Source: an uncultured delta proteobacterium
Lineage (GTDB): Bacteria > Desulfobacterota > Syntrophia > Syntrophales > Smithellaceae
Reading direction: 5' to 3'
Length of the DNA: 64,000 bases
NCBI GenBank assembly: GCA_963811325.1
Contig: CAWEQT010000001.1
Location: 2,410,497-2,474,496, forward strand
Positions 16,772 through 59,022 of this stretch are shown piece by piece. The notes below the pieces were generated by a model. It searched no databases. It worked only from the letters and a program-made list of their open reading frames with translations, and was not told where the DNA came from. A program made the position numbers and the translations under genes. Numbering within the stretch: the first letter of the stretch is position 1; every line of letters starts with the position of its first letter.

Positions 16772-16923
16772 ATGTATCCACCGACAAACAGCTATGCGCT
16801 ATTTCTTTTAGTAATGCTCAACATCAAGACTTTTCAAAATTGTTTATTCGTATGTGAAGGCAACGTTTCTGATGATGATTTAGCTTTTCAAAATCAATCA
16901 TAGAATTTTTTATTTTTAACTTC

Positions 16924-18551
16924 CTCTTCTAAGGAAGAAGTCAAGTATTTCTCTCGTAGAGATCTTTAAAGTTGAAAATGGTTGTGGTGGTACTTCGACC
17001 TTTTTTCCTTTTCACCTAACCTCTTTTATTCTACGGGCCCTTGATGCCCAACTTACCTTATACAGGACGAAAAGGGTGGTGGAAGTTGACCAAGCTAAAT
17101 CGCGCAAGCCTTTTAGCCTACGAAGTTACACGGACCTTCCTTCCGCCACAACCATACTTTACTATTTTATGTGTTTATGCTCATGCCGCAACAGGTACTA
17201 AATCTTCAAATTCCCGTTTGTCCCGTAGCAAGGCAAAGATCACTTTGATCAGCTTAATAGCCACCGCACAGAGCATCTCTTTACGTCTAGGCTGCTGACC
17301 AACTCTGTTTTTTGTTTCCAATTTACGAAGATAGTATTCCTGAAAATAGTTACTCAGTACCACCACCCTCATACTCATAAAGAAAAGATATTTCCGTAAG
17401 AGCCATCGCCCCTTCTTGGATATGAACTTCCGGCCAATACGTGAACCTGAATCACTCTCTTGGGGATCATATCCGGCGTACTTTACAATCTGACGGGCAT
17501 TATGAAAATGGGTAGGATCGCCCAGTTCTCCCAAAAACACAGCGGCAGAAAGGGGGCCTATGCCCGGTATGCTCATCAGATAGGATGCTGCGGTTGTCTC
17601 CTTCAGCAGGAGCTTCAACTGTTTATCTATATCCTTGAGCGACAGGACTGTCCGCTTTACTTCTTCCAGACACATTTGAACCCGGTACCGGTCGGCATTG
17701 CCAATCTGTTTTACGCCAATACTTTTTTGAGCCGCTTCAATAAGTTTTTCTACCTTACTGGCAGAACCAGCTTTTTTTCTTGACCTTCGTGCAATCAAGT
17801 CTTGGAGAGTTGACACTTTCATCAACACAACATCCTGAGGGAAAGGACACAGATCAAGAACTGCCCATAGACTACGTGACCCCATTGACCAAAATATCTC
17901 ATGCAGTTCGGGGAAATAGTCGTCCAGGGCGGCATGCAAGGAGTTTTTTGCACTCACACTGTATCGCAGAAGTCGCTCCCGTGCTTTAGAGAGCGTCCGC
18001 AACTGCCTCAGCACTCCATCCTCGATGACCGTGTCAATACATTTACCTTCTCTGGTTATGTTCGCTATGGTTAACGCATCTCTCTGATCACTCTTGGTTG
18101 ATGAACTCTCATCCAGCTCCCGGTGATGTTTCAATGCCGTCGTCCGTACAAAACGAACCTCATAGCCTTGCTCTTTGGCAAAATAGGCCAGCTTTCTCCA
18201 ATAATGTCCTGTCGGTTCCATCCCGATGAGAACATCCCTAAGATGATGCTTCGTTTTTAACCCTTCAATCATATCCACAAACTGCCCAAATCCTTCCCGA
18301 CTGGTATAGAGCTTCGCACAGCTTCCTAAAACCTTGCCTTCCTTGTTCATAAATCCCACTGCATTGAATGCATTGCCTATGTCAACTCCAACGATGAGGG
18401 TTGTTTTCTTAATCCTTTGACGACGTAATACTTGCTTGTTATAATCACTCTTGGACATGGTCTTTTCTCCTTTCTGCTTTGGTTGTTTTGGCTATTCAAC
18501 TTTGTCAGATCGAAAATACCATGTCCGCTACTATCTTCCTTATAGTAAGCT
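16924..18551 (-). mobile_element. IS110-family element A (IS1111-like), inserted in the left box of a module-junction site
   Basis: CT core at both ends (16924-25 and 18550-51); subterminal IRs TAAGGAAGA 16930-38 and TCTTCCTTA 18534-42; ~250-bp non-coding region downstream of the transposase. Removing it restores CTTCCTGTAA. Confidence 0.85.
17181..18458 (-). CDS. IS110-family DEDD transposase
   Basis: VGVDIG, MEPTGHYW, KSDQRDA, SIPGIG, SDSG. Confidence 0.93.
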   Translation of the reverse strand: MSKSDYNKQVLRRQRIKKTTLIVGVDIGNAFNAVGFMNKEGKVLGSCAKLYTSREGFGQFVDMIEGLKTKHHLRDVLIGMEPTGHYWRKLAYFAKEQGYEVRFVRTTALKHHRELDESSSTKSDQRDALTIANITREGKCIDTVIEDGVLRQLRTLSKARERLLRYSVSAKNSLHAALDDYFPELHEIFWSMGSRSLWAVLDLCPFPQDVVLMKVSTLQDLIARRSRKKAGSASKVEKLIEAAQKSIGVKQIGNADRYRVQMCLEEVKRTVLSLKDIDKQLKLLLKETTAASYLMSIPGIGPLSAAVFLGELGDPTHFHNARQIVKYAGYDPQESDSGSRIGRKFISKKGRWLLRKYLFFMSMRVVVLSNYFQEYYLRKLETKNRVGQQPRRKEMLCAVAIKLIKVIFALLRDKREFEDLVPVAA

Positions 18552-18602
18552 GTAATGTTGATTTTCTTACTTTCCCAATTCATGCAACATTTCATCCGTA
18601 AC
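18550..18602 (+). repeat. Module-junction site (its left box at 16920 is split by IS110-A)
   Basis: CTGTAA + 34 bp (TGTTG...CAACA) + TTTCATCCGTAAC. Confidence 0.8.
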
Positions 18603-18897
18603 AAACACTAGTCACGTCCAACAAACATAGACACCACACCCCACATTTTTTAATCAATATTTTCCTTGACATACAAACGTGGTTTCCCTATATTCCTTTT
18701 CCAAAGAAAGCAAGTTTTTATCAATCCGTATTACGGGAATGATTTTTCTATAAGTCCTCAAGGCCGTTTTTATTTTTAGGCTAGGTGGAAGGTAATGAGA
18801 ACAAAAAAACAAAATAGGATTAATCATTATTTTTAAGTTTTTGTAGCCGCTATTATTGAGATGCCGAAAATAAAAAAATGAAAGGACGTGAAATTTA

Positions 18898-19488
18898 ATG
18901 CTAAACAACGTTTACGAAATTAAAGAATCGTCAATTGCCGACCCGGGGCCGCTTGGTCTGGCTTGCTTCGCCCTAACCACCTTTTGCCTTAGCATGATAA
19001 ACGCAGAGTTAGTCGACAAAGCAGCAACCATCGTAGTGATTGCCCTTGCGCTCGTATACGGTGGCGTAACACAAATACTGGCTGGAATGTGGGAATATAA
19101 AAAGAACAATGTTTTTGGCGCTACCGCATTTGCATCATATGGTGCTTTTTGGATATCCCTCGGCATCTTTGATCTTTTAGCCACCCTGAAATTGGTTACA
19201 GTGCCTAGTCAAGGTGTTTGGTTGTTCTTACTAGCGTGGACCATTTTTACCTTTTATATGTGGATCGGCAGTTTTGGTACAAATAAGGCTCTAGTTGTTA
19301 CATTCACTTTGCTGCTTATAGCCTTTATTCTACTTACCATCGGAGCGGCAGGCAGCTCGTTAGCACATACAATGGGCGGTTATGTTGGTATTCTTACAGC
19401 TATTGCAGCCTGGTACACTTCAGCTGCTGGTATATGCAATACTGTGTTTGGGCGGGTTGTCTTGCCAGTAGGTCCCGTCAAAAAATAA
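18898..19488 (+). CDS. satP: Acetate uptake transporter, SatP/GPR1/FUN34/YaaH family
   Basis: ADPGPLGL and SYGAFW signatures; six hydrophobic segments. Confidence 0.88.
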   Translation: MLNNVYEIKESSIADPGPLGLACFALTTFCLSMINAELVDKAATIVVIALALVYGGVTQILAGMWEYKKNNVFGATAFASYGAFWISLGIFDLLATLKLVTVPSQGVWLFLLAWTIFTFYMWIGSFGTNKALVVTFTLLLIAFILLTIGAAGSSLAHTMGGYVGILTAIAAWYTSAAGICNTVFGRVVLPVGPVKK

Positions 19489-19723
19489 TTAATTAGTAAT
19501 CAAGAAAAAAGAGCGTTCCGCCTAACGTATTAAACATTCAGCCAAGAAAGTCATGACCGAGATAAAAATCGATTATGACTTTCTTCCTAATTCATTGATT
19601 CTCAAGTGACCTGCCACTGAAACTTTGTAGGTATTAGGTACAAATATTTTCTTAAAAATAAATTATTGTTTCCATAATGTATGTTTTAGTAAAAATAATT
19701 TTCTTAAAAAAACCAATTTACGC

Positions 19724-19785
19724 ATTACTTCCTGTAGTCAAGCATCAGCCATTTTTGACTTGCATACTCTCTTTCAATCGGTAAT
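19724..19785 (+). repeat. Module-junction site
   Basis: ATTACTTCCTGTAG + 34 bp + TTTCAATCGGTAAT, between convergent gene ends. Confidence 0.85.
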
Positions 19786-20302
19786 GCGCAAATATTACTG
19801 AAGACTTTTATCTAATTGCTGAATACTCCACAAAGCTTTGTCCACGGACAACGAGTTTGACAAAAGTCCAGTGGCGCCTTTTCCCTTATTAGTGCAAGCA
19901 ACACCCTTACCGTTATCTCTTGCCCGTAAGAAATACCAAGCCCTTTTAGTATTTTCGAGTCCCATTTCCGGACAGCGTCTTCATTGCCGATGGGATTCTC
20001 GCAACAGTCATTTTTGCAATCAGGACAGGATTTACAGAGTTGGTCTGGTCCCTCTGTAACGGTAATAATCAAATCGCTCTCTGATTGTGTAAGTTCTTTG
20101 ATTTTACTTAGGGCAAAGGAAAATTCTTCTCCGCGAATTAAGTTATCCAGGGGTAGAAACCTGTCACAAAAAAAGTGATGTGGTCGTAATCTTAATGTTT
20201 CCGGATTTTCACTAGAAGTCATACGCAATCCTAACTTTGAAATGTTTCCAATAATTCATCGCTATTCATCACAGATTGCCTTCTAAGGAAAACTTCTTCT
20301 TC
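19765..20302. repeat. ~540-bp direct repeat, copy 1 (copy 2 at 44905-45442)
   Basis: Near-identical sequence encoding the same 138-aa ORF. Confidence 0.95.
19812..20228 (-). CDS. DUF1284-like Cys/His-rich putative metal-binding protein, copy 1
   Basis: LRLRPHHFFC...GPDQLCKSCP...CQTRCPWTKLC. Confidence 0.75.
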   Translation of the reverse strand: MRMTSSENPETLRLRPHHFFCDRFLPLDNLIRGEEFSFALSKIKELTQSESDLIITVTEGPDQLCKSCPDCKNDCCENPIGNEDAVRKWDSKILKGLGISYGQEITVRVLLALIREKAPLDFCQTRCPWTKLCGVFSN

Positions 20303-20599
20303 TAAGGAAGAGAGCGTCCAGAATTTTCACTGATATGATCTGGAAATAAAGCCATACACAGTTGAGATATGATTAGTACAATCAATCTGGGCAATCGCTA
20401 CGCTTAGGTGAATTCATCGTTGCATCTTTCAATTTGAAAGAAGCCTTTTGCCGTGAATAATAATGGTGCAACATTATGGAGAAAGTCAACGCTGCCGCTG
20501 GTTAAGCGATGTTAAATAATCGGTGATCGGATTTTTTTTCTTGCTTCCTGTAGTCCTCAATTTTCAAAATGTTAATTTTATGCTTCTATGTAAAAAAGC

Positions 20600-20850
20600 A
20601 AGTCTTTTTTTAAAAGAGACATGATCAATATTCTTTTATAAAATATCGGGTGCATAGCAATCTTTAAAATCAATCTTCTATCAGCAGACAGACCGTTAGA
20701 AAGTCGCTGCATTTCCTTGGTCAGGTTTTAAAGGGTGGGCACGCAGTCTAGGTTAATAGCAGACTAAATGGCAAGCTGCAGCATAAAATAAGCGTTGCCC
20801 ACGGATTTATGATTATCAATTTGCCCTAAACACCCCATGATTGTTAATAG
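20600..20850 (-). ncRNA. Putative bridge/seek RNA of IS110-B copy 1 (boundaries approximate)
   Basis: Stem GTGGGCACGC (20735-44)/GCGTTGCCCAC (20792-802) encloses TCTAGGTTA (20747-55) and AGCATAAAAT (20780-89), which match opposite strands of the reconstructed target ATTTTATGCTTCTAGGTTA. Confidence 0.65.
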
Positions 20851-21909
20851 CTAAACAACCGCCGGAATATATTCTTGCCGATTTTTAAGAACGAATCGTA
20901 TACGGTTTAAAAGCTTCCGGGCAACATGCACAATAGCTTTCGTCTTTTTCATTCTCACAGATAGTTTATTGAAAGCCATTATCAATGCAGGGTCTTTGCG
21001 CACGGCGATCCAGGAAGATTCAATCAGTAACGCCCTGAGGGTGGCATTGCGCCGGAATGTGATGCCGGCAGCATATTCTGTTTCGCCGCTTGACCTTATG
21101 TCCGGAACCAAACCCTCGTAACTGGCAAGCTTATCAAGGGAGGAGAACCGGGAGAGATCGGCAAGCTCGGTCAGCAAAATCATGGCCGTCAAAGTGCTGA
21201 TGCCCGGCACGGATTTCAAAAGAAGGACGTCCGCCATATATTCTTCAGTTCTCGATAAACTTAATATGGCCTTGTTGAGGTTGGCGATAATCTGTCGCAG
21301 GTGCTTCAACTCCTCAAGATGTGCCTTGAGGGCAAAATCACCACTGGCCCTTTCCATACGGATAGATTCGATCCAATTGATAAATCGCCTGGACCAACGG
21401 CCCTCTTCAGGAATCACGATGCCGTAGAAAAATAAGATCGACGTGATCTGGTTCTTGCACCGTGTTTGTTTCCTCACCATGCTCTGACGGGTGCGCACCA
21501 AGGTGCGATCTTCCACTTTCACTCTTGGGGGAACGTAGATACCATTGATTTCACCGTTGCGGAGACCGCGGGCCAGTTTCCGGCAGTCTACCCCGTCCCT
21601 TTTGCCGGCTCTTTCCTTGTCTTTTGTCGGAACATCGGCAGGATGGACGACCAGGCAATCGATTCCTTTTGCTCTTAATTTGTCGTGGAGCCAGAAACCG
21701 CTGAAACCGGCTTCATAAACAGTATGATACGTGGCTCCTGGAAATGTTCTTTCCAAATAATACGTCAGTTTCTCAATCTCCGGGGGCTGGGTGAAGGTCT
21801 TATGCTCAAACTGTTCGGTATGTATACTCACGCTCCAGCTCTTCTTGTGGACATCCATGCCCACGTAAATGTGTTGACCTCCAAAGTCAAGTCTGTTATT
21901 CTTTTCCAT
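20851..21909 (-). CDS. IS110-family DEDD transposase, copy 1
   Basis: YVGMDVHKK, YEAG, KRDGVDC, SVPGIS, RSSGE. Confidence 0.93.
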   Translation of the reverse strand: MEKNNRLDFGGQHIYVGMDVHKKSWSVSIHTEQFEHKTFTQPPEIEKLTYYLERTFPGATYHTVYEAGFSGFWLHDKLRAKGIDCLVVHPADVPTKDKERAGKRDGVDCRKLARGLRNGEINGIYVPPRVKVEDRTLVRTRQSMVRKQTRCKNQITSILFFYGIVIPEEGRWSRRFINWIESIRMERASGDFALKAHLEELKHLRQIIANLNKAILSLSRTEEYMADVLLLKSVPGISTLTAMILLTELADLSRFSSLDKLASYEGLVPDIRSSGETEYAAGITFRRNATLRALLIESSWIAVRKDPALIMAFNKLSVRMKKTKAIVHVARKLLNRIRFVLKNRQEYIPAVV

Positions 21910-22073
21910 GGCGAGCCTCCTTTGCGTATTTATGTTTTAGCGGACTAAATATACCATCACAAAGTTGAGACTTGCCCTTGTATTTTTTAACATAAGGTCT
22001 AGGTTATTAACAGTAATCGTTAAAAAATCCCTCTTCGTTAAAATTATCCTACTAGGATTGCCTCGGGGGGCAA

Positions 22074-26026: not shown

Positions 26027-27241
26027 ATGAAAGCATTAATGTTGAATCTCAATCCCCTGCGCTTCGTGGCTCTTCAGTTGCTACGGCCCATCAGCGGAAA
26101 ATTTTGTTATACAGGGCCTTTTTCCACAATATGGCTAACGGACATCCCGGAGCCGAAGCTCCCATCCCCGGAATGGGTGAAGATTAAAACGCGGCTCTGT
26201 GGTTTTTGCGGCAGCGATCTCAACCTTCTCATGATGAAAGATTCCCCCACTGCGATGCCCTTCACTTCGTTCCCCTGCGTGCCGGGGCATGAGTTCTGCG
26301 GCGATATCGTTGAGACGGGTACGGACGTTACGTCTGTAAAAAACGGCGACCTGGTGACTGTGTTTCCGGCCCTCAATTGCGATACTCGCAGTATCCGACC
26401 GGTATGCCGGAGCTGTGCCGCTGGAATTCCGGGCAACTGCGAAAATTTTGCCGAGGGTGCGTTCGCGCCTGGTATGTTTATAGGAATCTGTAAAGACATT
26501 AATGGCGGGTTTGCCGAGTATGTGGTAGCGCATAAAAGCCATATATGCCGCGTACCCCTAGGCGTTTCAGCCGAATCGGCGGCGCTGACGGAGCCGCTGG
26601 CCGTGGGCCTACAGGCGGTGCTGGACAACATGTCGGGTGACAGCGATAAAGTCCTTGTCATTGGCGGAGGCGTAATCGGAGCAATGGTGGTCAAGTCCAT
26701 ACGTGCATTGGGCAGAAGCTGCGACATCACAGTGGTTGAGCCATCGCCATTCGCTGCCGAGTACGCAAAGAAGTCCGGCGCAGACCGGACGATCGGGGGT
26801 GGGATCATCGAAGCCGCTGTCGATATCGCCGGAGGTCGTGCCTACAAGCCGGAGCTGGGAGAAAGGATCGTTATGGGAGGATTCGACCGGGTTTATGACA
26901 CCGTGGGACACAGGAACACGCTGAACAAATCTCTCCGCGTCCTAGCCACGCATGGCACATTGTCCGTCATTGGCATCGGTAAGGAGGTCAAGCTGGACCT
27001 CACGCCTCTGTGGCTCAAACTCCAGACCGTCAAGGGTTGTTATGGATATCGTTATAATACCGTGAAGGACGGACGAAAACAGGCCTTTGAGATGGCACTG
27101 GATATTATTGCGGAAAAGAAGGTCCGCGTGGATGACATGCTCACGCACAAATTCAGGATTGAGGATTACCGTAATATGATTGATGTGAACATGCACAAGA
27201 CGACGAATAAAGCGATAAAAACAGCGGTAACTTTTGAATAA
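26027..27241 (+). CDS. Zn-dependent alcohol dehydrogenase (MDR family)
   Basis: CGSD, GHE, structural Cys cluster, GGGVIG; start moved to ATG 26027. Confidence 0.88.
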   Translation: MKALMLNLNPLRFVALQLLRPISGKFCYTGPFSTIWLTDIPEPKLPSPEWVKIKTRLCGFCGSDLNLLMMKDSPTAMPFTSFPCVPGHEFCGDIVETGTDVTSVKNGDLVTVFPALNCDTRSIRPVCRSCAAGIPGNCENFAEGAFAPGMFIGICKDINGGFAEYVVAHKSHICRVPLGVSAESAALTEPLAVGLQAVLDNMSGDSDKVLVIGGGVIGAMVVKSIRALGRSCDITVVEPSPFAAEYAKKSGADRTIGGGIIEAAVDIAGGRAYKPELGERIVMGGFDRVYDTVGHRNTLNKSLRVLATHGTLSVIGIGKEVKLDLTPLWLKLQTVKGCYGYRYNTVKDGRKQAFEMALDIIAEKKVRVDDMLTHKFRIEDYRNMIDVNMHKTTNKAIKTAVTFE

Positions 27242-27297
27242 TCAGGCAAACATCTTACCAATTTAAAGTATGATAACCAGTTGAACGGGAGGTAGTT

Positions 27298-27912
27298 ATG
27301 CTGCTAGCTGATATTTTATTCGACTCCGATTTTAATACAAGGGTCCAGGAAGTGGCCGGAGAGTTCAGAAAAAAAGCCGGAATTCCTTTCAAGGTGCACC
27401 AGGCTGGCATCACTGTACCCAATGTGGAGGCAGCTGTGGCAGATCTTGAAGCGAAAGGGTTCGGACCTTTTATGATGGCGGCAGCTTCGCTTCCCCGCTG
27501 GACTGAACGAGGCACGAATGGGCAGTTCCGCGGCAAGCTCGGAATGGCTTATCACGACGGAATCGAACTAGAACTTCTGGAACCGGGGGAAGGTTCTGAT
27601 TTTTATCGGTGCGCCCTCGACTCTCAGTGCAGGCCGGTTATCCAGCACATCGGTTTTCTGACGCACAAGGTCGATGAATGGGCGGAGAAAATGTCCAAAA
27701 TGGGTTGCCCCACCTGGGTCAGGGGAAAAATTGCGGTGGGACCGTTGCGCATCGAGTTTGTGTACATGGATTCCGTGCACGAAGCTGGGACTATACTCGA
27801 GTTTATCGGGTACTGGTTTGCAGGCATCCCGGTCAATCCGATCCCTGGGTTAATCGGCGTAGCCGCCTGGCTGCAGAAGAAGACAGGGAAGCGTTGCATA
27901 GATTTCGGATGA
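27298..27912 (+). CDS. VOC-superfamily protein (methylmalonyl-CoA epimerase/glyoxalase-like)
   Basis: HQAGITV...ELELLEP...QHIGF...ILEFI. Confidence 0.78.
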   Translation: MLLADILFDSDFNTRVQEVAGEFRKKAGIPFKVHQAGITVPNVEAAVADLEAKGFGPFMMAAASLPRWTERGTNGQFRGKLGMAYHDGIELELLEPGEGSDFYRCALDSQCRPVIQHIGFLTHKVDEWAEKMSKMGCPTWVRGKIAVGPLRIEFVYMDSVHEAGTILEFIGYWFAGIPVNPIPGLIGVAAWLQKKTGKRCIDFG

Positions 27913-27999
27913 TTTCATCGCGAAGACATTCAACTGATCCTCGTGGTCATTGAAAGCGGTCTAGAATTTATACCAGTCTGTGTCTCCTTATTAGTTTGT

Positions 28000-28061
28000 G
28001 TTTCTTCCCGTACGGTTGTTTTTTGATTTTTGCCTGCTTATGCAACCTTTCAATCCGTAAT
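28000..28061 (+). repeat. Module-junction site
   Basis: CTTCCCGTAC + 34 bp (GGTTG...CAACC) + TTTCAATCCGTAAT. Confidence 0.85.
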
Positions 28062-28224
28062 AAACAAAAAATGGCTGAACTCTAACTTAATATATGGTAC
28101 GAGCATTTTGGGTCGGTAAAAGGTTAATTTATCTACTAGGCATTGTGCATCAACCCTGAGTAAGGTGCTGCTCATTTTATAACAACCATTTTAGCAGGTA
28201 CAGGTAGTAATACGGAGAGAAGTT

Positions 28225-29256
28225 ATGAAAATTTATTTCAACAAAAATAATGGCCCCATTGATGAGATTATCGAGCAATTGATGAAGACAGCTGATGGAA
28301 TCAAAAGGCCAAAATATGTTCGCGAAATGATCATCGCCTCTCTTAAAGCCGGGCAAGAGGATGACAAGAGCGCTGATCTCAAGCTAATGAACACGACGCT
28401 TAAAGAGATGCGATTTACTTCCAAGGTTTTCGGCCCCTACCAGAATATTCGAAAGGTTACGGTCTTCGGCTCGGCGCGTACCCAGCCGGGCGATCAGTTA
28501 TATGAGATGGCAAAGCTCTTCGGGAGAAAGCTCGCGGAAACGGGTTACATGGTCATCACCGGTGGTGGGGAAGGCATTATGCAGGCCGTCAACGAGGGAG
28601 CCGGTTCTGAGCATTCCTTTGGCGTGAACATCCGATTGCCGTTCGAGGAGAAACCTAATTCCATAATCGAGGGCAATCCACGGTTTATAATGTATAAATA
28701 TTTCTTCAACCGCAAAGTTGCCTTCCTTAAAGAATCTGATGCTGTGGCGCTCTTCCCGGGCGGTTTCGGCACGCTCGATGAGGCGATGGAAACGCTCACC
28801 CTCCTGCAGACCGGCAAACGCAATCCCATGCCGCTAGTACTAGTGGATGATCCTGAATGTTCATATTGGTCCCAGATGATCAAGCTCTTCGAGGAAGAGC
28901 TACTGGCTCGCAACTATATCCACCCGTCGGATTTTGCGCTCTTTGAAAGAGTATGTTCCGTGGCTGATGCGGTAGAGAAGATTCATCGTTTCTATCGCCG
29001 CTATCACAGCATTCGGTATCTACATGGCCAAATCGTGATCCGGATCACTTCTCGGCTGACCCCAGATGAAATCGGGAAGCTGATAGATCAATTTCATGAC
29101 ATTCTCTCGCCTGGAGGAAGTATCACGGCGTCAGGAGCTTTGGAAGCTGAAATGGATGATGTTGATCTTATCCATCTACCGCGACTTGTGATAGACTTTA
29201 ACCGCAGATCTTTCGGGAGGCTCAGAAATCTTATTGATTCGATCAATAATTTTTAA
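28225..29256 (+). CDS. LOG-family nucleotide monophosphate nucleosidase-like protein
   Basis: VFGSAR, TGGG, PGGFGTLDE. Confidence 0.88.
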   Translation: MKIYFNKNNGPIDEIIEQLMKTADGIKRPKYVREMIIASLKAGQEDDKSADLKLMNTTLKEMRFTSKVFGPYQNIRKVTVFGSARTQPGDQLYEMAKLFGRKLAETGYMVITGGGEGIMQAVNEGAGSEHSFGVNIRLPFEEKPNSIIEGNPRFIMYKYFFNRKVAFLKESDAVALFPGGFGTLDEAMETLTLLQTGKRNPMPLVLVDDPECSYWSQMIKLFEEELLARNYIHPSDFALFERVCSVADAVEKIHRFYRRYHSIRYLHGQIVIRITSRLTPDEIGKLIDQFHDILSPGGSITASGALEAEMDDVDLIHLPRLVIDFNRRSFGRLRNLIDSINNF

Positions 29257-29448
29257 CCTTGTTTCATTACCTCAAGAACAGATGCAATGTCTCAACATCG
29301 TAGTTTAATTTGTTTCAGCAGAAACGCTATCAGCTTACATAAGACAGAGAAACCAATCCCGAAAAAAACATGATTACAAATGGTAATCATCAATCATTTT
29401 AAATCTGACAATTGTTGATTGGTAGGTGCAAGAAATAAAATCGGATAG

Positions 29449-29497
29449 CTGAAAACTCAGTTGTTGGCAGTTCAATTCTTTTCTTGCCCACCATGAA
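29449..29497 (+). repeat. Degenerate copy of the 3' half of tRNA-Phe (att-like scar)
   Basis: CTGAAAACTCAGTTGTTGGCAGTTCAATTCTTTTCTTGCCCACCATGAA matches 15198-15246 at 39/49 positions by manual alignment. Confidence 0.75.
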
Positions 29498-29647
29498 TTT
29501 CCCCACAAGAGATATTCTGCGGTCTATGCCCCCTAATGGGCGCAGTTGGCGCGACTCGGCTTAAGGTGTTGACCGGAGAAACTCGCCTCAAGCATGTCAA
29601 TACCTCAATATCCGCTATTTTCTCTGTTCGTGCATTTCGTCGTCAAC
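29489..29647 (+). repeat. Element-end repeat, copy 1 (also at ~43917-44076 and ~51137-51297)
   Basis: CACCATGAATTTCCCCACAAGAGATATT...TTTTCTCTGTTCG shared by three loci. Confidence 0.85.
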
Positions 29648-31008: not shown

Positions 31009-31045
31009 ACAGAACTTGACCTTACAATGATTGTCAAGGCAATTG

Positions 31046-31107
31046 ATAACTTCCTGTAAGTGAGTATTTATGATTTTTTACATATATACTTTCTTTCAAT
31101 CCGTAAT
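31046..31107 (+). repeat. Module-junction site
   Basis: CTTCCTGTAA + GTGAGTATTTATG-ATTTTTTA-CATATATACTTTC + TTTCAATCCGTAAT. Confidence 0.88.
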
Positions 31108-32922: not shown

Positions 32923-32973
32923 TATTAACTATCTAATAAAAGTTAATATTGATATAGGTTGGTTAAATAATTT

Positions 32974-33035
32974 CTTCCTTCCTGTAAGCCTTGAGCCAAC
33001 ACATTCCTCTTATGTGGTAGATTTCTAACGAAAAT
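32974..33035 (+). repeat. Module-junction site (variant right box)
   Basis: CTTCCTGTAA + 34 bp + TTTCTAACGAAAAT. Confidence 0.7.
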
Positions 33036-34200: not shown

Positions 34201-34260
34201 ATTTCTTCCTTGTAAGAAGTATTTCCTTGATTTTTTTCAGAGTAGATTTCTAATGTGAAT
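34201..34260 (+). repeat. Module-junction site (variant, 31-bp core)
   Basis: CTTCCTTGTAA + 31 bp + TTTCTAATGTGAAT. Confidence 0.6.
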
Positions 34261-35119: not shown

Positions 35120-35182
35120 CTTTCTTCCTTGTAAGAAACAGATCGTCAACCGTGACTAAAATGCAAGATTTCAATCCGTAAT
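35120..35182 (+). repeat. Module-junction site
   Basis: CTTCCTTGTAA + 34 bp + TTTCAATCCGTAAT. Confidence 0.88.
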
Positions 35183-44126: not shown

Positions 44127-44188
44127 CTTCCTTCCTGTACGAGAGCCTCAGGCAATTTTGACTTGTCTGATTCCTTTCAATTAGTAAT
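44127..44188 (+). repeat. Module-junction site
   Basis: CTTCCTGTAC + 34 bp + TTTCAATTAGTAAT. Confidence 0.85.
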
Positions 44189-44233
44189 CAATATTTAATT
44201 GACATACCAGATTATCCTTCATATATTCCCCTC

Positions 44234-46440: not shown

Positions 46441-46453
46441 TAAAGAATATCTT

Positions 46454-47563: not shown

Positions 47564-47823
47564 TATGCGCCTCCCTCTTTTTTATAAAATATATGATATT
47601 ATTGAATTTACCATATGGGTTGCTCTATAGGTTAATAGTAGGATAAACCTACTCTTGTCAAGTCAAATAGAATATATAAAACTGATCGTATCAGAGAAAA
47701 AAACTTAACTGTGAGATAAATTTAATCACTTGACACCAAGAGTAAGCTCAAGTATTTTTTAAATAACATGTCGAATCTTGTTTTGTCTCAATTGTTTCAC
47801 CGAAATTTTGCGGGAAAGATTAT

Positions 47824-48240
47824 ATGCCTGTAAACTATTTTAAAAATGATAAGTCATTGCGGCCACTGTTATTTCTTATATTTTTGTTGACTGTCATTAT
47901 CCTGCTGAAATTTTCCGGAGAGGCGGATAAATTAATAGACGTGCGTGAATGGATCAAAGGGCTCGGTTTCTGGGGTCCACTGGTTTTTATTCTAATTTAT
48001 ATACTGGCTGTCATTCTGGCACTGCCCGGATCGGCGGTAACGATTGCCGTAGCCACTCTTTTCGGTTCAGTTTGGGGAGTAGTGCTGGTAAGTATCGCTT
48101 CCACAATCGGAGCAAGCATCTGTTTTCTGATATCCCGTTATTTTGCCCGGGACTTCATTTTACGCAAATTCGCGCAAAACGAAAAATTCCTCAAATTGAG
48201 ATGTGCGATATCTGTGGCTCTCACAACGCAGCCCAATTGA
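47824..48240 (+). pseudogene. TVP38/TMEM64 (VTT-domain) membrane protein, 3'-truncated
   Basis: ALPGSAVTI...FG...STIGASICFLISRYFAR; ends before the conserved RLxP motif. Confidence 0.7.
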
Positions 48241-48381
48241 CAGATCTTTGAACCCACATCTTTTTTGATTATTAATGCAGGCAACGTTTCTAATGATGAT
48301 TTTGTTTTTTAAAATCGATCATTAAATTATTTATTAATAATTTCCTGAAGTCTGCATTTTCTAAATTTATAATTTTATGCT

Positions 48382-49798
48382 TCTATGTAAAAAAGCAAGT
48401 CTTTTTTTAAAAGAGACATGATCAATATTCTTTTATAAAATATCGGGTGCATAGCAATCTTTAAAATCAATCTTCTATCAGCAGACAGACCGTTAGAAAG
48501 TCGCTGCATTTCCTTGGTCAGGTTTTAAAGGGTGGGCACGCAGTCTAGGTTAATAGCAGACTAAATGGCAAGCTGCAGCATAAAATAAGCGTTGCCCACG
48601 GATTTATGATTATCAATTTGCCCTAAACACCCCATGATTGTTAATAGCTAAACAACCGCCGGAATATATTCTTGCCGATTTTTAAGAACGAATCGTATAC
48701 GGTTTAAAAGCTTCCGGGCAACATGCACAATAGCTTTCGTCTTTTTCATTCTCACAGATAGTTTATTGAAAGCCATTATCAATGCAGGGTCTTTGCGCAC
48801 GGCGATCCAGGAAGATTCAATCAGTAACGCCCTGAGGGTGGCATTGCGCCGGAATGTGATGCCGGCAGCATATTCTGTTTCGCCGCTTGACCTTATGTCC
48901 GGAACCAAACCCTCGTAACTGGCAAGCTTATCAAGGGAGGAGAACCGGGAGAGATCGGCAAGCTCGGTCAGCAAAATCATGGCCGTCAAAGTGCTGATGC
49001 CCGGCACGGATTTCAAAAGAAGGACGTCCGCCATATATTCTTCAGTTCTCGATAAACTTAATATGGCCTTGTTGAGGTTGGCGATAATCTGTCGCAGGTG
49101 CTTCAACTCCTCAAGATGTGCCTTGAGGGCAAAATCACCACTGGCCCTTTCCATACGGATAGATTCGATCCAATTGATAAATCGCCTGGACCAACGGCCC
49201 TCTTCAGGAATCACGATGCCGTAGAAAAATAAGATCGACGTGATCTGGTTCTTGCACCGTGTTTGTTTCCTCACCATGCTCTGACGGGTGCGCACCAAGG
49301 TGCGATCTTCCACTTTCACTCTTGGGGGAACGTAGATACCATTGATTTCACCGTTGCGGAGACCGCGGGCCAGTTTCCGGCAGTCTACCCCGTCCCTTTT
49401 GCCGGCTCTTTCCTTGTCTTTTGTCGGAACATCGGCAGGATGGACGACCAGGCAATCGATTCCTTTTGCTCTTAATTTGTCGTGGAGCCAGAAACCGCTG
49501 AAACCGGCTTCATAAACAGTATGATACGTGGCTCCTGGAAATGTTCTTTCCAAATAATACGTCAGTTTCTCAATCTCCGGGGGCTGGGTGAAGGTCTTAT
49601 GCTCAAACTGTTCGGTATGTATACTCACGCTCCAGCTCTTCTTGTGGACATCCATGCCCACGTAAATGTGTTGACCTCCAAAGTCAAGTCTGTTATTCTT
49701 TTCCATGGCGAGCCTCCTTTGCGTATTTATGTTTTAGCGGACTAAATATACCATCACAAAGTTGAGACTTGCCCTTGTATTTTTTAACATAAGGTCTA
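48382..49798 (-). mobile_element. IS110-family element B, copy 2, inserted in a module-junction site
   Basis: Matches 20585-22001; left box TTTCCTGAAG at 48341, right-box variant at 49801. Confidence 0.88.
48648..49706 (-). CDS. IS110-family DEDD transposase, copy 2
   Basis: Translation identical to 20851-21909. Confidence 0.93.
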   Translation of the reverse strand: MEKNNRLDFGGQHIYVGMDVHKKSWSVSIHTEQFEHKTFTQPPEIEKLTYYLERTFPGATYHTVYEAGFSGFWLHDKLRAKGIDCLVVHPADVPTKDKERAGKRDGVDCRKLARGLRNGEINGIYVPPRVKVEDRTLVRTRQSMVRKQTRCKNQITSILFFYGIVIPEEGRWSRRFINWIESIRMERASGDFALKAHLEELKHLRQIIANLNKAILSLSRTEEYMADVLLLKSVPGISTLTAMILLTELADLSRFSSLDKLASYEGLVPDIRSSGETEYAAGITFRRNATLRALLIESSWIAVRKDPALIMAFNKLSVRMKKTKAIVHVARKLLNRIRFVLKNRQEYIPAVV

Positions 49799-49963: not shown

Positions 49964-50317
49964 ATGAAAAAAATCACTGCAGCAACTATCGCTATCATGT
50001 TTATTTTTATCACGGCCGGTTTCAGTTTTGCCGCAAAGGAGTTTCAAATAAATGGAATAGTCACTAAGATCAATGGTAACAAGATAACAATTAAAGGTCA
50101 TAAAGGTAAAAAGACGACCATTGACGTTCGTTTGATTGGCATCAAGGTAGGTGATTCCCTTCTGTTGGCAGATAAGTTTCAGATAAAGGGAATAGTCACT
50201 AAGATCAATGGTAACAAGATAACAATTAAAGGTAATAAAGGTAAAGAGACGACCATTGACGTTCGTTTGATTGGCATCAAGGTAGGTGATTCCCTTCTGT
50301 TGAGTAGAGTACTGTAA
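49964..50317 (+). CDS. Small exported protein with a 45-aa internal tandem duplication
   Basis: Signal peptide; 135-bp DNA period (units start at 50041 and 50176). Confidence 0.7.
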   Translation: MKKITAATIAIMFIFITAGFSFAAKEFQINGIVTKINGNKITIKGHKGKKTTIDVRLIGIKVGDSLLLADKFQIKGIVTKINGNKITIKGNKGKETTIDVRLIGIKVGDSLLLSRVL

Positions 50318-50900: not shown

Positions 50901-51340
50901 AGAGGGGATCCCTGATTTCATCTGATAATTCCCTGCACCGTGATTTAAATTCCCTGCTATGCTAAAATAATTCCCTGCTCTGTTGAGTAGGGAATTTTCT
51001 TTGTAACCCACTGGAATGATGCATCATATCATCGTCACTTTTTCCATTTCGGTAGCAAAAACAACAATATTCCCTGTAAATTCCCTGATAAACAGGGAAT
51101 TTTGTATGGAGAGTGGTTCGAGCTAGACTACTAGCACCACCATGAATTCCCCTGCAAGAGATATTTTGCAGTTTATGCGCCCGGATGGGTGCAATTGGCG
51201 GGCTTCAGCTAAATGAGTTGACCGGAGAAACCCGCCTCAAGCACGTTAATGCCATAATATCCGCCCTTTTCTCTGTTCGGTGTTTTCGTCGGTCAACATA
51301 TTTGATCAGAAATCAAGGTTGCTGTGTCCCATTGAGTGGC
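50901..51340 (+). repeat. Element end-to-end junction repeat (attP-like), second copy
   Basis: Diverged homologue of 43701-44110; directly preceded by a left half-site CTTCCTAAAG (50891). Confidence 0.8.
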
Positions 51341-51353: not shown

Positions 51354-51415
51354 ACTATTTCCTGTAACAAATAAATCGCCAACCTGCACAAATATGCAAT
51401 ATTTCAATCCGTAAT
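51354..51415 (+). repeat. Module-junction site
   Basis: TTTCCTGTAA + 34 bp + TTTCAATCCGTAAT. Confidence 0.85.
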
Positions 51416-51466: not shown

Positions 51467-52027
51467 TCAAGATTCCTTTAATTCAAGCTGGAAATAAATA
51501 TCATCATCGCCCGCGGCAATACTCCTGACCTTTTTCACAACAGATTTTTCCCCGAACGTTTTGAGGGCCTGCTGATTGTAACCCATAACAAGTTGCTCAA
51601 AGTACAAATTTTTTATATTAATCCCTGTGACTTTGAGATGAACGATGTTGTTCTCAAACTTTGTGATAACTGTACCTCCGTCAAAAAACGCCGTCCAGAG
51701 CTTAGGCATGTAAACCTCGACGAACTGCTTTATATCCTTTGTGAGCATAAAAGATTTGTACGGACCTTCCGGCGACAGGGCATATTTAGCGCCTACTTTC
51801 CCAAACATCAAGTACGACATTCTGTCGTTGTTGAAGAATTCCCTGCACATCTCATCAAAAAGAATGATTAATTTTTCCACTGGAATAAGAGTAATGGACA
51901 TAATCATATTTTTGAAATATTTGTCCTTCTCTGTCAGCTTGGTCATAAAGGAATTCCAGCGTTCCTCGCCGAAAGCTGTGATCATAGCAGTCTTTGTCAA
52001 AACATAAAAAGTGCCTTTTACGTTCAT
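51467..52027 (-). CDS. Hypothetical protein
   Basis: AGGAGG RBS, 186-aa ORF; family not recognised. Confidence 0.7.
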   Translation of the reverse strand: MNVKGTFYVLTKTAMITAFGEERWNSFMTKLTEKDKYFKNMIMSITLIPVEKLIILFDEMCREFFNNDRMSYLMFGKVGAKYALSPEGPYKSFMLTKDIKQFVEVYMPKLWTAFFDGGTVITKFENNIVHLKVTGINIKNLYFEQLVMGYNQQALKTFGEKSVVKKVRSIAAGDDDIYFQLELKES

Positions 52028-52430
52028 ACGGAAACCTCCTAAGAATGCCTATGTGGATTTAATACTTTATAATATATATTTACGGTGCATTAATATGCAA
52101 GTGTATTTTTTATTTTATTAAAATGGAGAAAATCTACAACTTCCATGTAATAAAAATAACATGATTACAAGTAGCGATCCTCCTACCATGAATTAGCGTA
52201 AAATAATGTATAATAAGTATTAGAGTTGTAGCTAACGTTAATATAGTAATAAAACATGGAAAGGCAGGAGGACTTCGGTAATCCTGGGCGATAGAGCCCT
52301 TAATTGAGTTTGTCCCAAGCCTCTTTGAGCCATAATAGGTTGGTTGGATCATAGAATCCTTGTCACGATGGAGGATTGGTCAGGAGGCAATAATACCTGT
52401 TTTTTCCCACATGAGTCAGGAGGTTAAGTT

Positions 52431-53630
52431 ATGTTGGAAACAAGAGGTGATTTTGATTATTTTGTTGGTATAGATATTTCTAAAGATAAATTTGATGCCT
52501 GTGGGACAAGGAAAGATGAGACCAGGCATTTTCAGATTTCCATGGCGATGGACCGCAAAGGTTTTGAGAAACTGAAGAAGCATCTTGTCGGTTTGAATTC
52601 ATCTATTTTAATCGGGATGGAATCGACGGCGACTTATCATGTTAATCTTTTTTCTTATCTGGTTTCTGAAGGTTTTGATGTTATTCTCATCAATCCATTG
52701 CTGATATCCAATTATGTAAAGATGCCGTTGAGGAAGACCAAAACAGACAAGAAGGATGCTGCCTTAATTGCCCTATTTTTGCTTGCTAATGGGCATTCAC
52801 TGATGCAACGGATAAGTTCATCTTCCCTTGCCGATCTTTGCGATCTTTCCCGTCAGCGGGAGAGTCTGATTGCCGAGATGACGGCATTGAAGATAAACAT
52901 CAAAAGGCTCCTGAATATCATTTTTCCGGAACTGGAACATATGACGCCGGTATTTGCGAAGTCCATGTTGAAGTTAATACGTCAATATCCTTCAGCTGCC
53001 GCACTCAGAGATGCGGACATTGGCCGGATATCTGAGATGTTGATTTCCGATTCCTATGGACATAAAGGGGAAGCCTTTGCTGCGGGGTTAGTCAAGGCAG
53101 CACAGAAATCCATCGGCACAAGCAGTTCTGTCAAGGAAATGATTCTAAAGCAGAAGGCAGATTTGCTTCTCCATATGGAGGATTCCCTTCAGGAGATAAC
53201 GGGCATGCTGATAGAGATAAGCCGTAAACTGATGGAAGATGACATCAATATCATGACCTCTATAAAAGGGATTGGAGACACGACGGCCGTGAATTTTCTC
53301 ATGGAGATGGGTGGTGACCTCCATCAGTTTGAACGTTCCGGTAAAATCATTGCCCTGGCCGGATTGGATCCGGCTGTTTACCAATCCGGCAAACATGAAG
53401 GCAGGGGCAGAATAACAAAACGCGGGAATCGTCATTTACGAAAGATCATCTGGACGATGACAACCCGCGTAATCCAATACACCGATATTTTTAAAACCTA
53501 TTATCAAAAGCGAAGAAAGGAGGGATTGCCCCATAAGAAGGCTGTGCTTGCTACGGCTCATAAGTTAATTCGTGTCATCTATGCTATGCTGACACATCGA
53601 ACTACTTTTTGCCCAGAGGTAAATTCATGA
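52431..53630 (+). CDS. IS110-family DEDD transposase (element C; ends not resolved)
   Basis: VGIDISKD, MESTATY, KTDKKDA, SIKGIG, YQSG; long upstream non-coding region. Confidence 0.92.
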   Translation: MLETRGDFDYFVGIDISKDKFDACGTRKDETRHFQISMAMDRKGFEKLKKHLVGLNSSILIGMESTATYHVNLFSYLVSEGFDVILINPLLISNYVKMPLRKTKTDKKDAALIALFLLANGHSLMQRISSSSLADLCDLSRQRESLIAEMTALKINIKRLLNIIFPELEHMTPVFAKSMLKLIRQYPSAAALRDADIGRISEMLISDSYGHKGEAFAAGLVKAAQKSIGTSSSVKEMILKQKADLLLHMEDSLQEITGMLIEISRKLMEDDINIMTSIKGIGDTTAVNFLMEMGGDLHQFERSGKIIALAGLDPAVYQSGKHEGRGRITKRGNRHLRKIIWTMTTRVIQYTDIFKTYYQKRRKEGLPHKKAVLATAHKLIRVIYAMLTHRTTFCPEVNS

Positions 53631-53707
53631 TAGTTGACTCAACTCTGATAACTGTCCGGTACTCAAACTAAGTAGTAAAGTTTCTTAAGAGATGAAACAA
53701 ATAATAG

Positions 53708-53768
53708 ACTTCTTCCTTAATGTTGTTTTTTTTGTTTGCTCAATTCATTCAACTTTTCAATCGGTAAT
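53708..53768 (+). repeat. Module-junction site
   Basis: CTTCCTTAA + 34 bp (TGTTG...CAACT) + TTTCAATCGGTAAT. Confidence 0.82.
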
Positions 53769-53891
53769 AAGCAAAAAGTGGCTGAACTCTAAATTAACTT
53801 GTGGTACAAGTATTCGGGGCAGGTCGTTGTAACTGCTGTAAATGTAAATGGTGTTATAACTGTATCATTTATTTAAGCAGAGGAGGATGAA

Positions 53892-54429: not shown

Positions 54430-54491
54430 AATGCTTCCTGTTATCCTCAAATCGGCAATCTCGAAAATAATACTAGATTTCAATCCGTTAT
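54430..54491 (+). repeat. Module-junction site
   Basis: CTTCCTGTTA + 34 bp + TTTCAATCCGTTAT. Confidence 0.85.
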
Positions 54492-57610: not shown

Positions 57611-58252
57611 ATGGGCATGAATACAAAGAGAATCATATACGTCATAGTTTTGGCAGCTAGTCTTTCACTTATTGGTTGTGCGGCAAACAAAACTCTAAGG
57701 ATTAATGAGGAATATCGGCAGTTCAAAGCGCAAGAATATGTAATACCTGTGGATAATGGCTCCGTGAATCCTTTGCATATAACACTTCGGGTCGCCAACC
57801 TGCGGATGAATGGTAAGGAAATTCCGGTTTCATCACGATCTCTTCGTGCAAAGGAGATCCGCGATAGTCTCACAACTTTTGGTACGGCAATTGCCCATGA
57901 GATGAGCCACGCCCATAGTTCAGCGTTAGCCGGTCAGCCGCTCCAAATTGCTGTTTCCTTCGATGGTATGGAGGATCTTCACCTTGGCAGCGCTATTACC
58001 AAGGGATTTTTAACCGGCTTTTTTACCATAGGGCTGGTTCCGGGAGTTTATTCGTATCAATCCAAGGTGAGCGTGGATTTACTCGGCGGAAAGGGCACTT
58101 ATTCGGCCGAATCGCAAGAGGTAACGGTAAAGTATGACATAAATGACAAAAACGCAGGCGGAAAAGCAGGAAGTACAGCCAGAAGGCAAGCTGACAACGA
58201 AAGTCTGCAAAAAATCGTTAATAAAATAGCCAACCAAGGATTCTTTCAATGA
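57611..58252 (+). CDS. Hypothetical lipoprotein
   Basis: Lipobox LIGC. Confidence 0.7.
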   Translation: MGMNTKRIIYVIVLAASLSLIGCAANKTLRINEEYRQFKAQEYVIPVDNGSVNPLHITLRVANLRMNGKEIPVSSRSLRAKEIRDSLTTFGTAIAHEMSHAHSSALAGQPLQIAVSFDGMEDLHLGSAITKGFLTGFFTIGLVPGVYSYQSKVSVDLLGGKGTYSAESQEVTVKYDINDKNAGGKAGSTARRQADNESLQKIVNKIANQGFFQ

Positions 58253-58359
58253 TCTCTACCGATAAAATAAAGCGTACTTTTCGGGGGGCACCGATCCATA
58301 TAAACAATGTTAGACAGCATCAGAAATTTGGTGCAAACTTGTTTCTCAGGAAATAGACT

Positions 58360-58818
58360 ATGAAACGAATCATCTTCACGACACTTCTCCTAACCGCATT
58401 CATTTTTTTTATTGGTTGTGCCTCGTCCGGTCAGCTTATCTCCATGGCTCCAGATTACCGCGCCCTTAGGGGCATCGGGTCCATCTACTTAGGTGATTTC
58501 GGTGACGGAGAAGGCGCGGACATAGTCCGAGAAAAACTAAGAATTCGCCTGCTTAATTCGGCCAGATTCACGCTTGTCGAGAGTCCAGATCGAGCTGATG
58601 CATTTCTGACTAGATCTGCCGGAGTTGAGAAGTGGCTCTATGAGGGCACAACGCACCACCGAGGCACGGGCCTGCTTCGGCTTGTCGATACGAAAACGCA
58701 GAAGACCATCTGGGTTCACGAGTATAAGCGGGGGTTTATGCTCGGGGGTAGCGTAAGCACAAGAGTTGCTAACCAGATGGCCGATCAACTTCCGGAAGAC
58801 GCTGGCGCAGGGAAGTGA
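58360..58818 (+). CDS. Hypothetical lipoprotein
   Basis: Lipobox FIGC. Confidence 0.7.
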   Translation: MKRIIFTTLLLTAFIFFIGCASSGQLISMAPDYRALRGIGSIYLGDFGDGEGADIVREKLRIRLLNSARFTLVESPDRADAFLTRSAGVEKWLYEGTTHHRGTGLLRLVDTKTQKTIWVHEYKRGFMLGGSVSTRVANQMADQLPEDAGAGK

Positions 58819-58959
58819 GTTCATTGTGCTGCCTAAGTCGCAGCTGAATTCGCCGTTGCACCTCACAACTGATAATTCTCAATTTTTTCAACTGCTCACT
58901 AATGAAACTTCGTAGGTGTAACAAACAATTTTGACGATTCGGAAATCGGGATTTTATTT

Positions 58960-59022
58960 CTTTCTTCCTCTAAGTGTTGTCTTTCTTATTTTAGCAATTC
59001 ACACAACATTTCAATCGGAAAT
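58960..59022 (+). repeat. Module-junction site
   Basis: CTTCCTCTAA + 35 bp (GTGTTG...CAACA) + TTTCAATCGGAAAT, between convergent gene ends. Confidence 0.8.

Follow-up and report, generated by a model that had tools for sequence, protein, structure and literature searches.

A dispersed bipartite intergenic repeat of the Smithella lineage, with mosaic flanks and IS110-family insertions

What are the short bipartite sites that recur between the genes of an accessory region in a Smithella genome, and do they delimit units of exchange? The region lies downstream of a tRNA-Phe gene in a 64,000-nt stretch of DNA (the window) from an uncultured delta proteobacterium, positions 2,410,497 to 2,474,496 of contig CAWEQT010000001.1. 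A first-pass annotation had read the sites as recombination sites of a new gene-cassette array. The answer given here, to which we assign a probability of about one half, is that they belong to a NIME- or REP-like intergenic mosaic repeat, dispersed in the genomes of the Smithella lineage, which is a hotspot for recombination and for the landing of insertion sequence (IS) elements.

Anatomy, copies and distribution

The repeat is 58 bases long and consists of two boxes and a spacer, here called the filler. The 15-bp boxes have the form ATTTC-N5-GTAAT (left box ATTTCTTCCTGTAAT, right box ATTTCAATCCGTAAT) and follow each other in direct order at a distance of 47 bp. The motif is real: the right box TTTCAATCCGTAAT, with up to two mismatches, has 12 matches in the window, all on the plus strand, against 1.0 expected from shuffles, and the left box is enriched in the window as well. 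A profile made from the genome copies finds 10 copies in the window with E ≤ 1e-3, starting at 18550, 19718, 27998, 31042, 35113, 44121, 51349, 53703, 54425 and 58954. They are the full copies of the first-pass annotation plus the right part of the IS-split copy 16920/18551; all are on the plus strand and none is in the first 15 kb, in agreement with that annotation.

The other sites of the first-pass list fared less uniformly. At 32978 and 34205 the right box of the copy is degenerate; the former has a profile E-value of 3.8 and is matched by a full copy at the corresponding place in the related genome G049, while the latter has no profile match. None of the half copies at 35248, 44757, 50891 and 52140, which have a left box only, is significant alone. 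Nevertheless, 52140 is a short copy whose right box was cut by an IS, 44757 and 50891 bear a recurrent left-arm family, and the sequence at 44912 is the right box at the start of a duplicated 538-bp module.

The window lies in the genome G000, a Smithella-lineage genome of 3.16 Mb in two contigs, 98% complete. The near-fixed spacing reported earlier holds beyond the window, the filler measuring 34 bp in 58 of 89 G000 copies and in 244 of 294 copies pooled with relatives. The boxes had also been described as imperfect inverted repeats of each other. The inverted likeness is present, but the boxes are at least as much direct repeats: their consensuses agree at 11 of 15 positions in direct and, by reading, at 9 of 15 in inverted orientation, and mean box identity within copies is 7.7/15 direct and 7.5/15 inverted, compared with 4.2 in shifted registers. 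The two values are alike because each box is itself a partial dyad. The fixed 34-bp spacing and the dyad boxes suggest, from sequence, that a sequence-specific DNA-binding protein may hold both boxes.

The 34-bp fillers form about 8-10 discrete families, the two largest having 45 and 43 of 240 copies, and each family is common to many contigs of several genomes. In the family 'TCCACAAATCG...' (window 54434; G000 C1:208374 and 440582) left box and filler meet in the sequence TGTTATCCACA or TGTAATCCACA, which contains or nearly contains the DnaA-box consensus, TTATCCACA. In some families the two ends are complementary, as in TGTTGT...ACAACA and GAGCAT...ATGCTC, which might be expected of a small RNA, a leader, an attC- or REP-like hairpin or another structured RNA or single-strand DNA element. 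However, no in-register helix or covariation is found across 237 copies, the best column pair being 0.69 paired, and the largest filler family after the first lacks such a stem. Rfam has nothing for the motif at the gathering threshold, nor at E ≤ 10 over 27900-35400; its output consists of tRNA-Phe and chance microRNA-like matches. A structured element is thus very improbable.

When built from nine window copies, a profile detects 80 near-full copies on both strands of G000 (E < 1e-3); a broader profile detects 104, of which 63 are on the plus and 41 on the minus strand. The densest regions are C1 0.6-0.8 Mb (30 copies), C1 0.1-0.3 Mb (14 copies) and the 100-kb bin of the window (11 copies). 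The proposed array downstream of tRNA-Phe therefore dissolves into copies scattered genome-wide on both strands. In 24 congeneric genomes there are 0-84 right boxes each with at most one mismatch, compared with 0-3 for the reversed pattern. In other families of the same order, one genome has 36 right boxes and five families have none. An exact-pattern scan of one genome per prokaryotic species gave matches mostly in Smithella, Smithellaceae and Syntrophales metagenome-assembled genomes (MAGs); matches in unrelated taxa were of the order expected by chance (about 13 by our own estimate). The repeat therefore belongs to the Smithella lineage, and its expansion is very different between species. 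A literature search on Smithella intergenic repeats, supplements not covered, turned up no description of it.

Mosaic flanks, synteny breaks and gene context

The arms of the repeat are mosaic. Comparison of 289 unique copies gave 155 homologies limited to the left flank, 180 limited to the right flank and only 4 that extend across both. Left homology stops at motif positions 4-11 in 86 of the 155, and right homology begins at positions -16 to 7 in 53 of the 180 and at 32-47 in 87, showing that three parts reassort freely: left arm plus left box, filler, and right box plus right arm. These values come from a gapped analysis, used in place of an ungapped maximum-likelihood one that yielded few pairs (10 left-only, 8 right-only), with breakpoints scattered over -31 to 35. 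Because the boxes are conserved in every copy, a break can be placed only as in or at a box. A single crossover point is not seen; the breakpoints are spread across both boxes. In pairs of G000 copies, filler identity is 0.66 if only the right flank is shared and 0.41 if only the left is shared, against a background of 0.44.

Gene order is broken at the sites. Among the motif sites of other Smithella genomes, 34 have a G000 homologue for each of their two 1.2-kb flanks; these homologues are neighbours in G000 for 2 of the 34 sites, compared with 29 of 52 control gaps, which were intergenic gaps of the same loci. Synteny is thus broken at 32 of 34 sites and at 23 of 52 control gaps (Fisher p ~1e-6), which bears out the earlier claim that the sites are borders of independently assorting modules. 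Units of the window are found singly in other species with 92-96% identity (Table 1), and the units 44199-44701 and 45434-48198 recur in several genomes with 85-91% identity; the core genes by tRNA-Phe are 74-87% identical to those of genomes sharing window units. By our own tally, about 10 of 14 informative ends of shared window units lie within about 25 nt of a box. The left ends of modules vary, being situated before the left box, at the right box or past the right box. To the right of the last site, window 59100-64000 is 93-98% identical to contig C8 of G049, while the core genes are 81-84% identical to that genome; the recently exchanged region therefore runs past the end, at 59022, set by the first-pass annotation.

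Two loci show individual modules. The DUF1284 module at 19765-20302, present in the window in two copies, begins 7 nt before a right box and ends in the left-box-like sequence CTTCTTCTTC. In one Smithella MAG, a conserved intergenic gap, which in G000 is 80 bp long and has no motif, carries an insert of 1.3 kb. This consists of two small units, one with a 120-aa protein (PilZ-like by eye) and the other with a 54-aa open reading frame (ORF). A motif copy and a separate promoter stand ahead of each unit, and a single left box ends the insert. Neither terminal inverted repeats nor a target-site duplication were seen in this one occupied/empty pair, and no motif-only indel was found among 190 motif sites in other genomes' loci screened for adjacent flanks.

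With gene positions taken from crude ORF calls, 78 of the 80 G000 copies are intergenic and 61 of the 80 have a co-oriented downstream gene. Among the intergenic copies 17 have divergent neighbours, 11 have convergent neighbours and 6 oppose both neighbours. The copies at 19728 and 58964 do lie between convergent 3' ends, as reported earlier. For the most part the sites point along the downstream unit, with a promoter coming after them, the arrangement that the first-pass annotation had named as speaking against its reading. A TTGACA-N17-TATAnT promoter follows many copies at 9 to ~100 nt. On the same strand and within 160 nt downstream, sigma70-like promoters are found for 94 of 271 copies, compared with 29, 26 and 28 of 271 for three control placements, and the left box comes straight after a T-rich tail in 105 of 271 copies, compared with 32 in the control. 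The motif stays with the homologue of its downstream flank in G000 in 12 of 25 cases and with that of its upstream flank in 6 of 34.

The same right arms with their promoter stand before PilZ, acyl-CoA dehydrogenase, nitrilase-like and other genes. In G000 the 17-nt leader AAGCAAGTTCTTATCAA, with at most 3 changes, is present 57 times against 20 in the control, for example at window ~18680-18700, and an extended -35 sequence, TTGACATACAAG, 51 times against 12. AAGCAAGTTCTTATCAA and TTGACATACAAG look like a shared promoter/leader design ahead of unrelated genes. They were considered as parts of the motif and rejected, as only 10 of 57 and 10 of 51 matches have the motif upstream; it is absent upstream of the other 47 and 41. 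The promoter arm and the leader are therefore separate building blocks. Neither could the motif itself be read as a sigma70, sigma54 or extracytoplasmic-function (ECF) promoter, on either strand, since its consensus has no hexamers fitting the known promoter consensuses, including a sigma70 pair of -35 and -10 hexamers spaced by 16-18 bp. The T-rich tails, the downstream promoters and the separable promoter arm show that the motif is a polar border element, situated where one unit ends and ahead of the promoter of the following one, and is not itself a promoter.

The units in the window encode acyl-CoA dehydrogenases, thiolase, CoA ligases and CoA transferases. In G000 and related loci the commonest neighbours of the motif are small PilZ-like proteins, with 21 ORFs beside 21 copies, and IHF/HU-like proteins, with 8 ORFs beside 8 copies; PAS sensors also recur. 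The PilZ-like and IHF/HU-like names come from reading the sequences and not from a Pfam call. An element, AAAAATGGCTGAACTCTAACTTAAYATRTGGTAC, directly follows some copies (window 28062-28110 and 53769-53820; G000 C1 ~444.8 kb). It also occurs without the motif in G047 and just past the C-terminal end of an IS3-family transposase, and could represent a terminal repeat of IS3 type or else a derived miniature element.

IS110-family elements, recombinases and other features of the window

All three IS-interrupted copies of the first-pass list are genuine, and their interrupters encode IS110-family DEDD transposases. G000 has 15 IS110-family transposase genes of at least six types, and at least 14 of the 15 copies are in or beside a box. 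The boxes with 60-nt margins make up less than 1% of the genome, so that this association represents strong targeting. The elements differ in the position at which they are found. All three G000 copies of ISB split the 3' part of fillers from one family. All four copies of ISC abut a right-box-like sequence ending in ..GTA or ..GCG, the element beginning with AT, and the ISC copy in the window occupies the position of a module, with a right box before it and the left box 53712 after it. Two copies of an ISC-like element (77% related) abut left boxes in the same way. The four copies of ISE are 30-35 nt past a right box or 45-60 nt before a left box, and a right-box-like match stands just beyond the gene of the single ISD copy. 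Across 25 genomes, whose relatedness makes them non-independent, the number of IS110 copies correlates loosely with the number of boxes (Spearman 0.42). Two genomes, G002 (5 contigs) and G017, have 30 and 14 right boxes, respectively, and no IS110 genes.

No other recombinase could be linked to the repeat. The broken integrase by the tRNA gene, one of the candidates proposed earlier, belongs to the integration of the tRNA-Phe island and is apart from the motif. A search for a recombinase co-occurring with the arrays had also been suggested; none of the 19 tyrosine recombinases of G000, this fragment counted among them, is tied to the motif beyond ordinary island integrases, and among the gene families recurrent beside copies, IS110 transposases are the only recombinases. 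PF01797, the Y1/RAYT family, has no match in G000. The 186-aa gene beside the copy at 51358 (51467-52027, minus strand) was considered as a recombinase and rejected: it has no Pfam match, and of its four G000 loci only two are beside the motif. At the DNA level this gene matches many places per genome across the genus with 70-91% identity.

Eight DNA metagenome runs contain at least half of the sampled words of window 27001-37000, while in RNA runs 6-9% of the sampled window words are present. The excised or circular modules that had been predicted were not found: contigs of four independent soil metagenome runs have no excision joint, although this is weak evidence because contigs drop rare variants. 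These contigs keep the arrangement of the window. Their loose ends all fall at the edges of repeats, none of them bridges an uncovered part, and their single joint is accounted for by second copies of the repeats D1 and D3.

Other repeats are present in the window. The family that follows the tRNA-Phe remnant (Table 1) occurs three times in the island (29488-29642, 43727-44070 and 50948-51291), each time preceded by ...CACCA followed by TGAATTTCCCC and by AATTCCCTG motifs, including the inverted pair AAATTCCCTG-N5-CAGGGAATTT. A dRS3-like inverted repeat at ~43900 and ~51120 belongs to another repeat and not to the bipartite motif. The remnant and its repeat family suggest serial integrations at tRNA-Phe; copies of the tRNA-Phe 3' part (~55 nt) recur in contig C3 of G049. 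Between core genes, window 13460-13690 has two copies of an unrelated ~58-bp repeat, with dozens of matches in each of five related genomes (77-95% identity), which is a second, far more abundant Smithella repeat family. ORF 49964-50317, whose only Pfam matches are KOW/SH3-like and sub-threshold, contains a 135-bp unit in two tandem copies (50033-50302, 95% identity).

Table 1. Positions of the repeat copies, IS110-family elements and related features in the window
Position	Strand	Feature	Evidence
15167..15242	+	tRNA-Phe, left anchor of the accessory region	ARAGORN, Rfam
15384..15551	-	Tyrosine integrase C-terminal fragment, below Pfam cut-off (G000:C1:2425880-2426047)	PF00589, E 1.3e-5
16920..16925	+	Left-box remnant CTTCCT, copy split by IS110-family element	Junction sequences
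16926..18551, ends approximate	-	ISA, transposase 17181-18458 (425 aa), in left box between CTTCCT and GTAAT	PF01548, PF02371, junctions
18552..18608	+	Rest of ISA-split copy: GTAA, filler, right box	Profile match 18550-18608, E 4e-4
19728..19785	+	Full copy, convergent gene ends either side	Profile E 6.7e-12; sequence
19765..20302		DUF1284 module, copy at 44905-45442	Alignment (two mismatches/538 nt), Pfam
20544..20584	+	Left box and most of filler, copy split by ISB	Junctions
20585..22000, ends approximate	-	ISB copy 1, transposase 20851-21909 (352 aa), in 3' filler part	Pfam
28004..28061	+	Full copy	Profile E 2.5e-10
28067-29313		Recurring unit	In G047, 92-96%
29449..29497	+	Degenerate tRNA-Phe 3'-half copy, then repeat family recurring at 43916-44070 and 51137-51291	
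30195-32991		Recurring unit	In G049, 92-96%
31050..31107	+	Full copy; sole exact match to the first-pass consensus	Pattern search, profile
31064-32988		Recurring unit	In G016, 92-96%
32978..33035	+	Copy with degenerate right box; full in G049	Sequence, comparison
34183-35192		Recurring unit	In G016, 92-96%
34205..34259	+	Degenerate copy, kept along with its module in G016	Sequence, comparison
35124..35182	+	Full copy	Profile E 2.4e-13
44131..44188	+	Full copy; TTGACA -35 hexamer ~12 nt past right box	Profile, sequence
48341..48381	+	Left part, copy split by ISB copy 2	Junctions
48382..49797, ends approximate	-	ISB copy 2, transposase 48648-49706	Alignment, junctions
51358..51415	+	Full copy, moves with the 186-aa gene as one unit in many genomes	Profile, comparison
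52140..52176	+	Short copy, right box cut by ISC	Junctions
52177..53680, right end approximate	+	ISC, transposase 52431-53630 (399 aa)	Pfam
53712..53768	+	Full copy	Profile E 5.5e-5
54434..54491	+	Full copy	Profile E 3e-13
58964..59022	+	Full copy, 35-bp spacer, convergent gene ends either side	Profile E 4.2e-6

Relation to known systems and interpretation

The neisserial dRS3/RS repeats (NIME) are the closest described analogue. They are intergenic, with short boxes flanking many interchangeable spacer families; they are tied to the exchange and divergence of neighbouring genes, with IS elements as opportunistic inserts, and an element-encoded transposase/recombinase uses the boxes as targets for integration (PMC1797815). 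NIME resembles the Smithella repeat in its boxes and interchangeable fillers (about 10 families in Smithella), in the exchange of neighbouring genes with synteny breaks, and in IS110 targeting. The Smithella box, however, is unrelated in sequence, ATTTC-N5-GTAAT in place of ATTCCC-N8-GGGAAT; its units stand singly and their filler is fixed at 34 bp, whereas NIME form long arrays with 50-150-bp RS; and the Smithella sites are polar relative to the downstream promoter. The enzyme that targets dRS3 is of the IS110/Piv kind. The Smithella host, an anaerobic syntroph, is not known to undergo natural transformation, and differs in this from Neisseria.

A second likeness is to the REP, BIME and REPIN repeats. 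The bridge-RNA-guided IS110 elements IS621 and ISPpu10 are reported to land in high-copy extragenic REP-type repeats, and the Smithella repeat is likewise of high copy number (104), extragenic (78 of 80) and a landing site of IS110 elements. Unlike these repeats, it has no conserved palindromic hairpin and no RAYT/Y1 gene, and it is bipartite with a fixed spacer.

The first-pass annotation was correct that the sites do not match attC, dif or CRISPR layouts, as the box sequences, their symmetry and their arrangement all differ. An attC site is an imperfect palindrome of the form R''-L''...L'-R', with cores RYYYAAC and GTTRRRY, and is itself targeted by IS110/IS1111-type elements; integron cassettes are mostly promoterless and form a co-oriented array beside intI, attI and Pc. 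Like attC, the Smithella sites recur between units, are co-oriented within the island and accompany units that are shuffled between genomes. However, the sites lack R/L cores, and no folded-strand symmetry is found across 237 copies; the units bear their own promoters, with the site on the 5' and not the 3' side of the unit, and the copies are scattered over the whole genome on both strands. No intI gene was seen with an array next to it, the 19 PF00589 matches in G000 not being typed as IntI. The dif or pdif sites of XerC/D have an 11-6-11 structure and alternate in orientation around modules, whereas the Smithella boxes are 5-5-5 dyads with one orientation within the island. In contrast to CRISPR, with its tandem direct repeats of at least 21 nt, there is one box pair per site, and the fillers belong to shared families instead of being unique spacers. 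Putative mobile promoters are homologous upstream regions that precede unrelated genes (PMC3575422). The Smithella right arms with their promoter resemble these and Correia-type elements in preceding unrelated genes, but the bipartite motif is not a promoter, the promoter arm is mostly without the motif, and no terminal inverted repeats or target duplications were seen.

The preferred reading, of a mosaic repeat that is a hotspot for exchange and for IS landing, would work as follows. Each site stands at the border of two units, after the T-rich end of one and before the promoter of the other; it usually points along the downstream unit and is more often kept with that unit than with the upstream one. 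The conserved boxes would act as short recombination and landing sequences, possibly held together by the DNA-binding protein suggested above. Smithella species would gain, lose and exchange units bounded by boxes, the breaks in homology falling in or next to one box or the other, and exchange would probably occur at the boxes rather than merely beside them. Several lineages of the IS110 family, whose elements are RNA-guided, would have tuned their targeting to different positions of the repeat.

Several points weigh against this reading. A box identity of 10-15 bp is short for RecA-type exchange, so that an enzyme or a rare illegitimate route would be needed, and the searches of recombinases and neighbouring genes found no box-binding or box-cutting protein. 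The boxes of G002 and G017, in genomes free of IS110, mean that IS110 cannot be what maintains the repeat, and the contigs offer only the weak negative on excision joints mentioned above. Pairs of copies fall into families and are not independent, so that counts of high-scoring segment pairs overstate the number of events, and BLAST extension through the conserved boxes blurs the breakpoints by ~10-15 nt. The loci of other genomes were chosen by the exact box pattern, which favours young copies. The ends of modules could also coincide with the motif merely since a gap between terminator and promoter tolerates breaks.

The cassette idea itself survives in part. The sites do delimit mobile units, but an attC-like, island-specific and integrase-driven mechanism is unsupported. 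A true site-specific system, with a recombinase encoded elsewhere and promoter-equipped units that excise as circles with one hybrid site and reinsert at any other site, would account for the recurrence of site-bounded units in new contexts in other species, for the adjacency of flanks in 2 of 34 cases against 29 of 52, for the ends of the duplicated DUF1284 module at a right box and a left-box-like sequence, and for the two tandem motif-led units of the MAG that are absent from G000; the strict spacing and dyad boxes would also fit a protein-DNA complex. We nevertheless regard it as unlikely, because breakpoints are distributed over both boxes and the filler instead of one position, the left ends of modules vary, and the empty G000 site has no motif at all. 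Furthermore, the copies are single and dispersed on both strands and do not form arrays beside a recombinase, Y1/RAYT is lacking, neither the 19 tyrosine recombinases nor any recurrent neighbour except the IS110 transposases offers an enzyme, and the four metagenome runs have no joint. A variant, which we hold equally doubtful, is that the boxes are the sites of a new Smithella cassette-exchange system in which units equipped with promoters leave and enter at either of two equivalent 15-bp dyad boxes; its enzyme would be an as yet unrecognised recombinase, possibly a domesticated RNA-guided one of the DEDD/IS110 type.

A purely regulatory role is likewise unlikely. Here the repeat would be an operator-like site of a dimeric DNA-binding protein (a global regulator, a nucleoid-associated protein or an insulator); the site would lie upstream of promoters, would have spread through the copying of promoter regions and would take no part of its own in recombination. 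The partial dyad of each box and the fixed spacing agree with such a site, as do the orientation with the downstream gene in 61 of 80 copies, the 3.4-fold enrichment of promoters just downstream, the tendency of the motif to be kept with its downstream flank, and the IHF/HU-like paralogues beside eight copies. On the other hand, the distance from the right box to the -35 hexamer ranges from ~9 to ~100 nt, and at least three window copies (19728, 51358 and 58964) face only the 3' ends of genes. Copy number varies up to ~80-fold among congeneric genomes of similar size, and almost no copy retains both neighbours between species. The fillers form discrete conserved families and do not drift, which indicates copying and reassortment and not convergent binding sites.

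Smithella are uncultured or hard-to-grow syntrophs, important in methanogenic alkane and propionate degradation. A conserved border element of this kind, flagging units that carry promoters and can be exchanged, would account for their mosaic accessory genome and would offer a handle for spotting recently moved genes in metagenomes. That at least five lineages of the IS110 family converge, at different positions, on one target makes the repeat a natural case for the evolution of bridge-RNA targeting. Should a dedicated recombinase exist, the repeat would represent a new cassette system; should cassettes be exchanged through it, this would amount to a genome-wide, integron-like, promoter-autonomous network of gene shuffling across Smithella species.

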